Source of the DNA: Candidatus Melainabacteria bacterium
Lineage (GTDB): Bacteria > Cyanobacteriota > Vampirovibrionia > Obscuribacterales > Obscuribacteraceae
Direction: 5' to 3'
Assembly: GCA_013288645.1 (NCBI GenBank)
Contig: JABDBL010000006.1
Coordinates: forward strand, 18,779-82,778
DNA: 64,000 bases
The translations under genes and the position numbers were made by a program. This document shows positions 26,337 through 38,826 of this stretch, piece after piece. The notes beneath the pieces were generated by a model that saw only the letters and a list, made by a program, of their open reading frames with translations, was not told where the DNA came from and did no database searches. Numbering within the stretch: position 1 is the first letter of the stretch; each line of letters begins with the position of its first letter.

Positions 26337-28868
26337 TTAGGTTTTATTAGCCTCTGGGTAAATCGGGGGAATTCCCATCAAAGTGGGAGAATTCCCATGG
26401 CTAAAGATTAAATTGTAAGGACTTGAGGCAGCGGAAGTATTGCAATCTCCATAAGCTTTGTTAGAGCTAGCAAGAAAGCTTCTCATAAAAGGGTGGCGGG
26501 ATCTGTTTTTAGCTTTCTGCAAGTGGTAATTCATGGCTCCTGTATGGAAGGCATAAATCTGATTAAAAACGAGTGCCGGTGCCCCAATAAAATTGGCATT
26601 TTGGGCTTGTTTGTCAGTAAATGGATTAAATAGGGCCTCTTTGGCATCCATTGATTGTTTTTGTAAGTTTTCGTTTGTCCACAAATTCTGCGTGGACATA
26701 TTGTGGTCTGCTAAAGAGGGATATTGTCCATGTTGAGCGATTTTTTGATCTGGGTTTTTAACGTCTGTCCAGTTTGAATTTAATTTGCTTTTGGGAACGT
26801 AAAGACGAGAATTTGACTTTGTTTGTTCTTGCTGACTTGTTTCTAGTTTTTCGCTTAACGGATTATTTTCTGCTGGAGAAGTAATAATTTTAAGCTGTTC
26901 TGGGTTCGGGGTAGAAGGACTGGGACTGAGCCCGAAGCTCAGAGCAAAACTAGGCTTGGAACCTGAAGGATCATTGCTTGGTCTAATAAATGGACTTGGG
27001 CCTGAAGGATCATTGCTTGGTCTAATATATGGACTTGGGCCTGAAGGATCATTGCTTGGTCTAATAAATGGACTTGGGCCTGAAGGATCACTGTTTGGTC
27101 TAATATATGGACTTGGGCCTGAAGGATCACTGTTTGGTCCAATATATGATCTTGGACCTGAGCCTGGCGGCCTAGACGGAGGGGGAGAGTTTGGTTCAGG
27201 ATCAGGATTTTTTGGCTTTGGTCCTTTCGTAGGATCTGTTGTTGTTCCCGATGAGTTATTGATTGATGCTATGGCGAGAGCTAATGCCATAGCTGTACTA
27301 GTGGATGATGATACAGCTATGGCTGAACCTCCTGTCAGAACACTTGCTGATGTGGCATTGCCAAATATTGCTCCAGCGCCAGCGGCAAATGAGCCTGCTA
27401 AGCCATTTTTATTAGAGTTGGGTTGTGATTGGTTGTCGCGATTAGATTGTGGATTTCCGGCATTTTCTATATTGGTTGCTCTAAGCGGCGGTAAGAAGTT
27501 TGGACTGTGATTATAATTATCAGCAAAACTAAAATCATTTTGTTTCAGTGTGGGGTCTAACATGTTTGATGCGGTGCTGTGTTTTTCATTGCCGGTAAAT
27601 ACTGATCGCAGCATTTTTACGCCGTCCTTTAATCGGTCGTCGTAGTTAGCGATATCTTTTACAGCTTTGACAAAAAGACGTGGATTGACAAAATCGGACG
27701 CCACGCTAATTTTAGCATGGGCTAAAAATTGCGGTACATCCATCATTATTTGCAGAATGCCAATGGCTGTCAGTATTTTGCCCCATGGATTGAGATTTGA
27801 ATAAAGCAATATGACTAGAATTTTTAACAAGCCAATCCATATAAAATTCCAAAGACTCACTTCCACAAAGGTCCGAATATAACTAGTGGCAATATTGTCA
27901 GTTACCGGATTAGTTAGAAGAACCAAAAATACTGGCGCAAATACATATTGGGCTGTCATTAAGGCACTTTGGATGGCTTTTAAAATAACAACATAGACTA
28001 ATTCATAAATGAGGACAATTGCCAATAAGCAGAAAACTATAGGCAATAAAATTTGAATAAAGGGGACCAAAGTCTCAACAAAAAAACTGGAATTTATACT
28101 AAAGACGCCTGTAGCAAACAAACTTACGCTAAATAGATTTTCAAATAAGCCTGACATACCGAGATCTAATAATTGAATATTGCCGTTATTATCTATGAAT
28201 AGCGCATTCATCAATTCGTTGCTTAGCTGAATTTGAAAGCTATAAATGGTAGGCCAAGCAAGCAATAATCCTATGGCAAAGATCAAGCGTGCAACCGGGC
28301 TCATCAAATTGCCGCTGCCTTTCCAGGCTGAATCTACCCAATAACGCCATATACTTAAGATAAATAAGAGCAACGATAGATCAAGGGCGATACCGAATAT
28401 AGTTTCATTAAATTGCTTTAGTAAAAAAGTGAGATCGTGACTATTTGGGGAGGCATTTTGTATTTTTGTCAGATCGGTATTAAGAAAAAACTGTTTTATA
28501 GCATTACTGAGGTAAATAACAGTCAGTGGCAAGTAAGAATTGCGAAGATCTTGAAAGAACTGATTTATTGCTTGCGCAATTCCGTTAAAGAATATGCCAG
28601 AAATGTCTTGATACCAGAATTGTCTTATACTCTGATATATTTCACTGGTATTAACGGTATTGTCCAGTCCATTTAGTATTTGCGAAAAAGGACTGAATGT
28701 TGAAACAGATTCAGCCATATTCTGCGAAGCAAGTTGGCTTATTAAAGACTGATCGAATGAATTAGTTTTGGATTTATTTGTATCGTTATTGTCTGCTTGG
28801 CTTGCTGTCGGGTTTAATAGCAATAAGGTTGCTAGCAAAAACAAGCTTAAAAAAAATCTTTTGGGCAT
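26337..28868 (-). CDS. VirB6/TrbL/PrgH-position polytopic membrane protein with a Pro-rich tandem-repeat region and a C-terminal soluble domain
   Basis: Signal peptide (FLLATLLLLNPTASQA). About 6-8 TM helices in residues ~150-400. Ala/Ser/Gly segment, then 13-aa repeats. First gene of the T4SS-like operon. Confidence 0.5.
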   Translation of the reverse strand: MPKRFFLSLFLLATLLLLNPTASQADNNDTNKSKTNSFDQSLISQLASQNMAESVSTFSPFSQILNGLDNTVNTSEIYQSIRQFWYQDISGIFFNGIAQAINQFFQDLRNSYLPLTVIYLSNAIKQFFLNTDLTKIQNASPNSHDLTFLLKQFNETIFGIALDLSLLLFILSIWRYWVDSAWKGSGNLMSPVARLIFAIGLLLAWPTIYSFQIQLSNELMNALFIDNNGNIQLLDLGMSGLFENLFSVSLFATGVFSINSSFFVETLVPFIQILLPIVFCLLAIVLIYELVYVVILKAIQSALMTAQYVFAPVFLVLLTNPVTDNIATSYIRTFVEVSLWNFIWIGLLKILVILLYSNLNPWGKILTAIGILQIMMDVPQFLAHAKISVASDFVNPRLFVKAVKDIANYDDRLKDGVKMLRSVFTGNEKHSTASNMLDPTLKQNDFSFADNYNHSPNFLPPLRATNIENAGNPQSNRDNQSQPNSNKNGLAGSFAAGAGAIFGNATSASVLTGGSAIAVSSSTSTAMALALAIASINNSSGTTTDPTKGPKPKNPDPEPNSPPPSRPPGSGPRSYIGPNSDPSGPSPYIRPNSDPSGPSPFIRPSNDPSGPSPYIRPSNDPSGPSPFIRPSNDPSGSKPSFALSFGLSPSPSTPNPEQLKIITSPAENNPLSEKLETSQQEQTKSNSRLYVPKSKLNSNWTDVKNPDQKIAQHGQYPSLADHNMSTQNLWTNENLQKQSMDAKEALFNPFTDKQAQNANFIGAPALVFNQIYAFHTGAMNYHLQKAKNRSRHPFMRSFLASSNKAYGDCNTSAASSPYNLIFSHGNSPTLMGIPPIYPEANKT
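26365..26397. promoter_or_regulatory. double GGGAATTCCC-type palindrome (GGGGGAATTCCCA-N5-GTGGGAGAATTCCCA)
   Basis: Read directly. GAATTC cores are 20 bp apart. Lies 60-90 nt upstream of the 26306 start, inside the last codons of the VirB6-like gene. Confidence 0.4.
26955..27165 (-). repeat. 39-bp in-frame tandem repeat, about 5.3 copies, encoding SDPSGPSP(Y/F)IRP(N/S)
   Basis: Unit CTTGGGCCTGAAGGATCATTGCTTGGTCTAATA(A/T)ATGGA, counted directly. Copies differ at a few positions (ATAAAT/ATATAT, CATTGC/CACTGT). Confidence 0.9.
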
Positions 28869-28969
28869 AGCAAGTCACGTTTCAAAACCTGCCCCCTGGT
28901 TATATGCAATTTGTATAGAGATATATTGTCTATGAACTCAGTTTAATGTGGCGAATTCGAATTGTCACT

Positions 28970-28982
28970 GGGGAATTTCCCA
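28970..28982. promoter_or_regulatory. GGGGAATTTCCCA palindrome-like site upstream of the T4SS-like operon
   Basis: About 100-115 nt upstream of the 28868 start. On the minus strand it is followed by TGACAA-N16-TAAACT, a possible -35/-10 pair. Confidence 0.4.
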
Positions 28983-29019
28983 TCAAGATTGAAAATATTC
29001 ATCCAATAAGTAATGCACA

Positions 29020-37668: not shown

Positions 37669-37699
37669 TTGGCTAGGCCTCCTAAGTGCCTGAATGAAA

Positions 37700-38710
37700 T
37701 TATTGAGTAGCTAGAGTGGTGAGTGGTGATGGTGGTGGTCCTTGTGAGACAGCACCGCTACTGCTTGTGGTCATTTTGTTTGGGTTTATCATGGGAATGC
37801 CATAAAGGTCGTTTGTAACTTGAGCATTGGCAAAATTCCTTGTGTGATTGCCAGAGGCTGTTTGCTGAGGTACGCCTGCTTGTCCTTGTCCTGGGTATTG
37901 AGCAGGCATTGGTGAATCAAAAGAAATCTGAGCTTTTTTAACGGCTGCTTGTTTGAAATTACCAAAATCTGTTGTAGTGGATCCGGCTTGCGGTACCCAA
38001 GCAGTGCCTTGAAGGCGATAAGCATTAGCTGTACGCGGCAAGCCAAAATCATTACTGCCTTGACGGGTTGGGCGTGTAGTGGGAGCGGAACCAGTAATTT
38101 GTCCGTTTGAATTCACAGCACCAATGGCTGCTGCGCTGTTCTGACTTTGACCGGCACTTGCTCCTGAAGAGCCATTATAAAAACTAGGTGGTCTGAGCAT
38201 GCCAGGGTTAGCTCCCGGTGTAGAAGGTTCAGGAGGAATAGATCCGCCCACGACGGCATTCATTACTCCCGGTGGCATAGCGATAGCGTTACTGACTGGC
38301 AAAGAGATTACATTACTAGGTACATTTATTTGATTAGCTGGCACCACAACTTGATTGGTAGGTAAGCTAAATTGATTACCTGCTATGCCGTTTGCCCAAG
38401 GGATTAAAGTAGGGGGGGCAAGAAGCATGCCTGGGTTAGGAGGTAGAGGTACAAGTCCTGATCCAAGTGGAGGTATTGCACCTTGAGCAGAGGGAACGCC
38501 AGGCAAGCTAAAATTAGCACCATTAACTAAAGGGTCTCTTAAAGCGGTTGTACCTGCACCACCATAAATAGAATTGCCTGAAGAAATGGCAGGAGTAGAA
38601 CCTGATTGGGCATGTATTGGCAGGCTTAAAGCAAAAATGCCAATCAAGGATAAAGCCAATGCTATTGGCACTGGTGTCTTTGAATTGCTGTTTTTACTTA
38701 CATTGAACAT
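37700..38710 (-). CDS. secreted Gly/Pro/Asn-rich protein, paralog of 36622..37668
   Basis: Signal peptide (IALALSLIGIFALSLPIHAQSG). Shared motifs LRDPLV, SLPGVPS, LGSG, PPTLIP and NDFG/TTDFG. Confidence 0.65.
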   Translation of the reverse strand: MFNVSKNSNSKTPVPIALALSLIGIFALSLPIHAQSGSTPAISSGNSIYGGAGTTALRDPLVNGANFSLPGVPSAQGAIPPLGSGLVPLPPNPGMLLAPPTLIPWANGIAGNQFSLPTNQVVVPANQINVPSNVISLPVSNAIAMPPGVMNAVVGGSIPPEPSTPGANPGMLRPPSFYNGSSGASAGQSQNSAAAIGAVNSNGQITGSAPTTRPTRQGSNDFGLPRTANAYRLQGTAWVPQAGSTTTDFGNFKQAAVKKAQISFDSPMPAQYPGQGQAGVPQQTASGNHTRNFANAQVTNDLYGIPMINPNKMTTSSSGAVSQGPPPSPLTTLATQ

Positions 38711-38815
38711 TGTCGTTTTCCGGATAAAAGACTATGTAGAGGGAGGCTACTTGTTTACATATAAGGTAATGCTTAAAGGGGCCAATGTCTTGGGGGTTAT
38801 TACGTAGGACCCCCC

Positions 38816-38826
38816 GGTATTTCCCA
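38816..38826. promoter_or_regulatory. half-match to the GGGAATTTCCCA motif (GGTATTTCCCA) next to GGGGG-N13-CCCCC
   Basis: About 105-115 nt upstream of the 38710 start. The 3' half ATTTCCCA is identical to site 28970. Weaker than the other sites. Confidence 0.3.

Follow-up and report, generated by a model that had tools for sequence, protein, structure and literature searches.

The stretch of DNA analysed in this study (the window; 64,000 nucleotides (nt), Candidatus Melainabacteria bacterium, contig JABDBL010000006.1) carries a cluster of genes resembling a type IV secretion system (T4SS). In this study, we found that a 13-14 base pair (bp) near-palindrome, ATGGGAATTCCCC, hereafter called the unit, stands at the promoter-like regions of this cluster. 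The units exist, are conserved and directional, and are locked in position to conserved promoter hexamers. They are probably the operators of one dimeric sequence-specific transcription factor that would coordinate the promoters of the T4SS-like cluster. Binding of a protein to the units, and the transcription start points, are what we infer from the sequence. The units and the predicted promoters that accompany them were designated as sites A to D. Unit sequences are given in gene sense, and bit scores are those of the weight matrix described below.

26365 to 26378, minus strand: site A, proximal unit, ATGGGAATTCCCCC; highest matrix score in the window, 25.2 bits
26384 to 26398, minus strand: site A, distal unit, ATGGGAATTCTCCCA; 22.7 bits
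26334 to 26362, minus strand: predicted promoter A, with -35 TTTACC (26362-26357), a 17-nt spacer and -10 TAATCT (26339-26334)
28970 to 28983, minus strand: site B, single unit, ATGGGAAATTCCCC; 21.4 bits
28940 to 28968, minus strand: predicted promoter B, with -35 GTGACA (28968-28963), a 17-nt spacer and -10 TAAACT (28945-28940)
36581 to 36594, minus strand: site C, proximal unit, GTGGGAATTCCCCC; 22.9 bits
36599 to 36614, minus strand: site C, distal unit, GGGGGGATCTTCCCAC, in inverted orientation
36550 to 36578, minus strand: predicted promoter C, with a weak -35 TTCATT (36578-36573), a 17-nt spacer and -10 TAATAT (36555-36550)
38814 to 38827, minus strand: site D, half-site unit, ATGGGAAATACCGG; low matrix score, 4.4 bits
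38763 to 38813, minus strand: rest of promoter D, GGGGGGT-N11-ACCCCC with a (T/A)(G/A)CGTA core, based on a phylogenetic footprint
38791 to 38786 and 38768 to 38763, minus strand: hexamers of promoter D, -35-like AAGACA and -10-like TACCTT, separated by a 17-nt spacer

The motif copies had been reported in a preliminary description of this DNA, and all of them were confirmed. Exact copies of the 10-mer GGGAATTCCC are found at 26367 and 36583, its variants are GGGAGAATTCCC at 26385, GGGAATTTCCC at 28971 and GGGAAGATCCC at 36601, and the half-site ATTTCCCA occupies 38819-38826. The sites lie approximately 61-116 nt upstream of minus-strand start codons, in agreement with that description, and its claim that the motif is rare was borne out by comparison with shuffled sequences. 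The pattern GGGA-N0-5-TCCC had five copies in 64 kb compared to 1.75 expected, a number reached in 1 of 100 shuffles. With at most one mismatch allowed, GGGAATTCCC had five matches compared to 1.13 expected, and none of 100 shuffles reached five; one of these matches, at 4240, lies within an open reading frame (ORF) and is due to chance. All five copies of the gapped pattern fall at three promoter-like places (26365-26398, 28970-28983, and 36581-36614), and a fourth element is present in half-site form at 38814-38827. A repeat search that was independent of the motif placed the three sites in one family (D3).

A 16-nt weight matrix was then trained on distant relatives only (loci L013-L090), and the window and its close relatives were left out. 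The matrix ranked the five window units first and preferred the minus (gene-sense) strand. The minus-strand scores of 25.2, 22.9, 22.7, and 21.4 bits were above every null maximum (mean 13.6, largest 20.5 bits). Outside the cluster, in the other ~41 kb of this DNA, neither the matrix nor the pattern gave a strong match. Two weaker look-alikes put forward in the preliminary description obtained no matrix score, and both are taken as chance. The gene behind the one near 34530 (32632..34446) was not seen in L002, the closest relative checked. The one near 42015, upstream of rarA, is absent in a relative with an 82% identical RarA. Partly because they are rare and clustered in the window, the sites were judged to be operator-like.

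We investigated the conservation of the units in homologues of the locus. Homologues of the 843-amino acid (aa) VirB6-like protein were found in metagenome-assembled genomes (MAGs) of Candidatus Obscuribacterales and Melainabacteria. The close alignment set consisted of the window (W) and L002-L007, with loci of 12.7-22.6 kb fetched for the four closer relatives. The distant set, L013-L090, was gathered via a protein anchor, blind to the motif, with one genome per species. This protein-anchored scan gave 80 loci, nearly all from Obscuribacterales and with GC contents of 36 to 65%, most of which carry the motif at syntenic places. In the four closer relatives, in which the 843-aa protein is 42-63% identical, GGGA-N0-6-TCCC was found only at the sites orthologous to A, B, and C. 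The exception is L005, where the proximal unit of site C reads GGGAATACCCC and was missed by the pattern. Sites A and C are also present in L006 (36% identical, GC 48%), with an extra site ahead of the p112 homologue. The neighbouring non-coding sequence diverges while the unit stays at the orthologous promoters. The preliminary description had considered that the motif could be a dispersed repeat, equally dense in coding DNA. Only 3 of 175 strong sense-strand matches in 1.44 Mb of loci lie inside long ORF bodies, and no strong match was found outside the syntenic contexts in the fetched DNA. The 73 'unassigned' strong matches, considered as possible extra regulon members, are all the same syntenic sites on the other strand, or lie upstream of diverged family members. 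These results indicate that the motif is present at orthologous promoters across the order.

The sites differ in their surroundings. At site A, the proximal unit is identical in L002-L005 and conserved in L006 and L007, and its centre would lie at about -43.5 from the predicted start of the p274-p112-VirB4-p211-VirD4 operon. The distal unit, 19-20 bp further upstream at about -63.5, is also conserved in relatives. The hexamers of promoter A are kept in W and L002-L007, with a varying spacer. The preliminary description placed all sites in 5' regions. This is correct for site A in that it lies 61-90 nt ahead of the p274 start (start codon 26306), but 26365-26398 is not intergenic; it lies inside the last ~20 codons of ORF 26337..28868(-), whose stop codon is overlapped by the -10 TAATCT. 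Promoter A and the operator doublet (26334-26398) are thus within the 843-aa coding sequence, and the doublet translates as HGNSPTLMGIPPIYP; the L006 counterpart of the site A unit is intergenic.

Site B abuts the -35 of the promoter of the VirB6-like gene (start codon 28868) in a divergent intergenic region, and its unit is conserved in L002-L005. In relatives, promoter B reads [A/G]TGACA followed by TAAACT, TAAGCT, or TAATAT. Site C is located in the gap between p348 and p246 and precedes the p246-p210-p143 operon (start codon 36496). Its proximal unit is conserved in all 7 genomes, its distal unit starts 8 nt past the stop codon of ORF 36622..37668, and the two together form a 34-nt imperfect palindrome. 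The -10 of promoter C (TAATAT/TATTAT/TACTAT) is exactly 25 nt past the unit in all 7 genomes and across loci. The sites at 28970 and 36581 had been described as being followed by plausible -35 and -10 hexamers, and this held for both, promoter B being called by a promoter scan and promoter C having a weak -35.

Site D occupies the 'distal' position (~-70 to -57) of the predicted p336/p348 promoter (start codon 38710). Conservation of the sequence ATGGGAAATACC (38827-38816, minus strand) extends to all seven genomes. In approximately 29 further loci, site D reads [A/G]TGGGA[G/A]AAA(C/T)C(G/C), and some copies are full palindromes, e.g., GTGGGAGAAATCCC. It is followed in relatives by the (T/A)(G/A)CGTA core, CACC(C/A)A(A/C)GACA, 17 nt, and TAC(C/T)TT. 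The half-site noted earlier at 38819 is real and conserved in the seven genomes, and it belongs to a different, longer promoter architecture.

Next, the anatomy of the unit and its register with the promoter were examined. The gene-sense consensus is [A/G]TGGGA-N5-CCC(C), and an ungapped alignment of the units reads [A/G]T-GGGA-A-T-T-(C/T)-C-C-C-C with the GGG and CCC columns fixed. The unit is directional, as ATGGGA is always promoter-distal on the sense strand. In doublets, the second unit is inverted (GGGG...CCCAT), and the centres are 18-19.5 bp apart across loci. Those of the window doublets are 18.5-19 bp apart, as previously described. Among 107 non-identical units in the distant loci, TANNNT followed the first G at a distance of exactly 36 or 37 nt in 77. 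A further 26 had it at 57-58 nt; these are distal doublet members whose partner was missed by the strict pattern. On the antisense strand, TANNNT at such spacing was found in none of 82 matches. The position profile showed a -35-like signal at offsets 14-19 and a -10-like signal at offsets 37-42, and the spacer was unconserved. The -35-like hexamers after the unit are TTTACC, [A/G]TGACA, or weaker, and after a 17-nt spacer the -10-like hexamers are TAATCT, TAAACT, and TAATAT. A promoter-anchored search of the distant loci was performed with [A/G]TGACA, 15-17 nt, and TANNNT as the query. All 18 non-identical promoters found upstream of VirB6-like genes were directly preceded by a unit, and two of these units are degenerate. 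Taking the -10 as -12 to -7 places the unit centre at about -42.5/-43.5 and that of the distal unit at about -63.

The cluster consists of the following genes.

18604 to 21639, minus strand: VirD4-like coupling protein
21651 to 22286, minus strand: p211
22296 to 25148, minus strand: VirB4-like ATPase
25120 to 25458, minus strand: p112
25482 to 26306, minus strand: p274, Zn-ribbon/TPR protein
26337 to 28868, minus strand: VirB6-like protein, 843 aa, polytopic
34628 to 35059, minus strand: p143, pilin-like, with signal peptide
35102 to 35734, minus strand: p210, with signal peptide
35756 to 36496, minus strand: p246, with signal peptide
36622 to 37668, minus strand: p348, with signal peptide
37700 to 38710, minus strand: p336, with signal peptide

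The machine genes (18604..28868) were assigned by Pfam matches and conserved gene order, and the five signal-peptide proteins matched no Pfam family. We counted the motif within 300 nt upstream of each gene family in the distant loci. It was found upstream of the p246 family in 49 of 51 cases, the p274 family in 43 of 58, and the VirB6-like family in 23 of 68. For the p336 family, the strict pattern was found in 5 of 40, site D usually being in half-site form. The internal genes VirB4, p112, p210, p211, p348, and p143 had the motif upstream in only 0-3%. In L038, which has extra tandem copies of p143, each extra copy has its own unit-bearing promoter. The best explanation is that sites A and B would control the machine genes, and sites C and D the signal-peptide genes (34628..38710).

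In L006, L007, and most of L013-L090, which are more distant relatives, the VirB6-like gene is directly preceded by the five signal-peptide genes. Since the 'machine' and 'secreted-protein' genes are contiguous in most relatives, they make up one cluster. As this contiguous cluster includes the pilin-like 143-aa protein, the signal-peptide proteins are likelier to be parts of the apparatus than separate effectors. The preliminary description had proposed a regulon linking the secretion machine to secreted proteins. The motif is indeed found at both groups of genes, but the second group is better regarded as probable apparatus components than as cargo.

In the proposed mechanism, the factor would bind each unit directly upstream of the -35 of a sigma-70-type promoter, centred at about -43. 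Two promoters have an additional, inverted copy 18-20 bp further upstream (~-63) that would also be bound, and at the fourth promoter the -63/-70 position alone would be occupied, by the half-site. The bound factor would contact RNA polymerase beside the -35, in class II-type (plus class I-type) activation. Four transcription units would be switched on together, namely the VirB6-like gene, p274-p112-VirB4-p211-VirD4, p246-p210-p143, and p336-p348. The dimeric-factor operator suggested in the preliminary description gains support from the motif's presence at orthologous promoters, its orientation, and its fixed distance to conserved hexamers. The centre of -42.5/-43.5 relative to the predicted -10 would correspond to class II-type geometry, in which the dyad is centred ~41-45 bp upstream. 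Moreover, the -35 and -10 hexamers are only moderate matches to the consensus, as expected of activator-dependent promoters. Activation appears somewhat likelier than repression.

Several points weigh against this proposal. The -35 of site B is near-consensus (GTGACA/ATGACA), which is less typical of activator dependence. The transcription starts are predictions, and the -43 and -63 positions may be a few bases off. The extent of the regulon was judged from the window and the fetched loci. The GGGA..TCCC spacing looks variable, 1-4 nt, when read naively; this apparent variation comes from the run of Cs, and the ungapped alignment fixes the GGG and CCC columns. Finally, the binding protein was not found among the small or unknown ORFs of the locus by Pfam or fold comparison. 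The model of p274 (predicted local distance difference test score 87) has a Zn-ribbon beta domain and a TPR-like helical domain. Its nearest folds in the PDB were TPR proteins including SycD-type type III secretion chaperones, with weak E-values of at least 0.12. The protein p215 (39507-40154, plus strand), divergent from promoter D in most loci, was modelled as a long helical-hairpin coiled coil. A phmmer search with five helix-turn-helix (HTH) sequences as queries found no LuxR/NarL-type HTH in the window, and a census of ORF families in the 80 loci revealed no further conserved gene and no syntenic regulator. Among the ORFs checked outside the cluster, the only genes for DNA-binding proteins were those of an HxlR-type regulator and a resolvase, and synteny with the cluster was seen for neither. 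A 50-aa ORF beside VirD4 was also tried as the regulator and rejected, as it is a membrane peptide.

The alternative that survives best, which we nevertheless consider unlikely, is that the factor is a repressor. Such a factor would occlude the polymerase or its alpha-subunit contacts, or bridge proximal and distal units, and keep the cluster silent until a signal arrives. The fairly good -35s of promoters A and B (TTTACC and GTGACA/ATGACA) are consistent with repression, and inverted doublets 18-20 bp apart could allow cooperative tetramer binding, as with many repressors. However, the units stop before the -35 and never extend over the -10 or the predicted start, the location of most repressor operators. 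The -35 of promoter C is poor (TTCATT/TTTTAT), and activators in contact with the polymerase typically show such a strict one-base register with the -10. These observations argue against repression.

The protein p215 was considered as the regulator in another, improbable reading, in which an Obscuribacterales-specific DNA-binder of an unrecognised kind recognises the units. Here p215 would bind GGG...CCC as a dimer resembling a basic leucine zipper (bZIP), and the site C doublet would be both a transcript-end hairpin and an operator. If so, the end of transcription of the first operon, at the doublet after p348, would be linked to activation of the next. Immediately ahead of its long helical zipper, p215 has the invariant basic segment AREKRIRRQV. 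The protein is 215 aa long in the window and 200-220 aa in its family, is restricted to Melainabacteria and unusually conserved, with 50-57% identity in distant genomes, and had no sequence match in the PDB.

We also compared the units with promoter elements of alternative sigma factors. Melainabacteria are sister to Cyanobacteria. It is very improbable that the GGGAAT core is the extended -10 of a group-3 alternative sigma factor (SigJ J-Box, or sigma-B/sigma-F GGG(T/A)AT). The motif is always forward relative to the gene, its three Gs and AAT resemble the J-Box of Nostoc punctiforme (PMC6495340), and a few variants read GGGAATACC (L005 site C) or GGGAAATACC (site D). The two elements are thus alike in occurring in related lineages, in their invariant GGG and AAT, in their forward orientation, and in preceding genes for cell-surface apparatus. 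However, the cyanobacterial J-Box, GGGaAtacT, itself works as the -10 and has a near-invariant A and a near-invariant final T (PMC6495340). In contrast, the units end in C at 81% of sites and in T at the other 19%, and C is found in 81-99% at offsets 8-11. At the position of the J-Box 'a', 68% of sites have T, and the right half, CCCC, is 77-99% conserved, so that the unit is palindromic. The units also form inverted doublets, and no conserved element was found 14-17 nt upstream of single units. In addition, a separate conserved -35/-10 pair is present in the predicted promoters, its -10 at a fixed 25 nt downstream of the unit, and would be needless in a 5' untranslated region. An extracytoplasmic function (ECF)-type sigma factor was rejected as well, as an ECF-type -35 would need a conserved element 16-17 nt downstream of GGGAAT, and none is present.

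We give very little credence to the possibility that the elements act as RNA, with the doublet stem-loops terminating, attenuating, or stabilising the upstream transcript. The site C doublet does fold at -31.6 kcal/mol (z = -4.0), which none of 200 shuffled sequences equalled. It also starts 8 nt after a stop codon and follows the p348-family gene across loci, so that it may double as a transcript-end hairpin. Sites A (z = -0.8), B (z = +0.45), and D (z = +1.0), however, fold unremarkably, and site B, in a divergent region, precedes a first gene. Conservation concerns the sequence (GGG, CCC, and the ATG prefix) and not pairing alone, and the closing pair is often broken, e.g., CCCAC..ATGGG. 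The terminator scan called no T-run terminator at the sites, and they matched no Rfam family.

The last alternative is hardly tenable. Under it, the units would serve a process of the conjugation-like machine other than transcription, as an origin of transfer (oriT) or relaxase nick region or as sites of recombination or partition, or they would simply be copies of a dispersed repeat. VirD4- and VirB4-like ATPases are encoded in the cluster, a Replic_Relax gene follows VirD4 in one relative, and inverted repeats occur in oriT regions. However, there are three to five units per cluster, each within one base of the -10 register and in gene direction, and they precede particular gene families and are missing from the other ~41 kb of the window.

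The vir box is a dyad of the TNCAATTGAAAY type, and the PIP box reads TTCGB-N15-TTCGB. By analogy with the Agrobacterium vir box and VirG, the Xanthomonas PIP box and HrpX, and PmrA in Legionella and Coxiella, the units would be a short box placed before every apparatus operon. They share with these systems the occurrence in one or several copies, the fixed promoter register, and the prospect of one regulator firing the system. The vir and PIP boxes differ from the unit in being unrelated in sequence, and the setting here is an uncultured melainabacterium with a minimal VirB4/VirD4/VirB6-like machine and lineage-specific signal-peptide proteins. CRP and FNR bind sites at -41.5 and -61.5, and the lux and tra boxes of LuxR and TraR lie at about -42 to -45. 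Class II/III activator promoters resemble those of the cluster in having a dyad that abuts the -35, an optional second site ~20 bp upstream, and moderate hexamers. Their sites span 16-22 bp, whereas the unit spans 12-14 bp with G/C-rich arms and an A/T core. The class II centre is -41.5, compared to a predicted -42.5/-43.5 for the units, for which activation is our proposal.

NarL-type heptamers (TACCCAT) and the RcsAB box are bound by dimers of NarL/FixJ-family HTH proteins, and the half-site ATGGGAA resembles the complement of the NarL heptamer. The RcsAB box has the consensus TaAGaatatTCcta (PMC4325325) and is, like the unit, a 14-bp pseudo-palindrome with an AATATT-type centre. In the best case, the variant TGGGAATATTCCCA (site C of L003 and L004) fits this consensus at 11 of 14 positions. 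Membership in the RcsAB/NarL-type boxes was rejected, since the invariant arms are GGG/CCC and not AAG/CCT and the phmmer search found no ORF with a LuxR-type HTH in the window. The resemblance is one of format only, and is a lead. Based on the site format, our best guess is that the regulator is a dimeric HTH protein of the NarL/FixJ or a similar class.

Rel-homology proteins are eukaryotic. The 10-mer GGGAATTCCC is identical to a eukaryotic NF-kappaB site (e.g., PMC10527052). This identity is a coincidence; in the cluster, the 10-mer is part of a longer unit, ATGGGAATTCCCC, tied to a promoter of bacterial type. In the literature searched, only NF-kappaB uses of the 10-mer were found and no bacterial GGGAATTCCC operator, and there was nothing on the Obscuribacterales T4SS-like locus or on gene regulation in Obscuribacterales.

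Obscuribacterales are uncultured non-photosynthetic relatives of cyanobacteria, and the T4SS-like cluster is found order-wide, often in multiple copies. The putative operator presents the VirB4-, VirD4-, and VirB6-like genes and the five signal-peptide genes as one co-regulated apparatus. It could serve as bait for finding the regulator by DNA pull-down, one-hybrid assay, or structure modelling, and as a search key for the regulon in complete genomes and metatranscriptomes. No new principle is involved, as control of secretion systems through a box beside the -35 is well known from the vir, PIP, and tra/lux boxes.

Several features of the cluster genes were also observed. In the window lineage only, ~5.6 kb of unrelated genes is inserted between the pilin-like and VirB6-like genes (29020-34446). 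Among the inserted genes are those for a membrane protein, a nucleoside deoxyribosyltransferase-like protein, a protein with a YbaK/tRNA-editing domain, a HAD hydrolase, and an aspartyl-protease/TPR protein. The p143 protein (window 34628-35059, minus strand) has a length of ~143 aa in most loci, and L038 (7732-9645) has three tandem copies of its gene. By eye, it is ~80% identical to its L038 counterpart, compared to ~38% for the VirB6-like protein. It looks like the major structural (pilin-like) subunit, though it has no family or structure match. Five tandem 39-nt repeats at 26923-27156, inside the VirB6-like ORF, encode repeats of the type PSGPSP(Y/F)IRP(S/N)(N/S)D. The C-terminal half of this family is very variable in length, and the proteins range from ~650 to ~1870 aa among relatives. 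Several Obscuribacterales MAGs have two or three paralogous VirB6-like genes or clusters on different contigs, e.g., L021, L028, and L049 (one MAG); L016 and L024; and L014, L034, and L052. Paralogues of the L009/L049 type sit among unrelated genes, and L021 shows no motif.

Mobile-DNA features were found in and around these loci. In L006, a Replic_Relax (PF13814) gene at 22329-23174 comes right after the VirD4-like gene, and no such gene follows VirD4 in the window. This gene hints that the cluster descended from a conjugative element. At 15691-15767 (plus strand) of the window, the catalytic domain of a group II intron was identified (Rfam RF00029, 57 bits). The matching Logan contig has a maturase-type ORF close by, and a serine recombinase/resolvase gene (14523-15095, plus strand) is located just upstream of the intron domain. 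Together, the intron and the resolvase look like a small patch of mobile DNA beside the cluster. At 44139-45050 (plus strand), beside uvrC, a 188-aa ORF without a Pfam match overlaps the end of a TacA-like antitoxin gene by 4 nt, and the two are a probable toxin-antitoxin pair.

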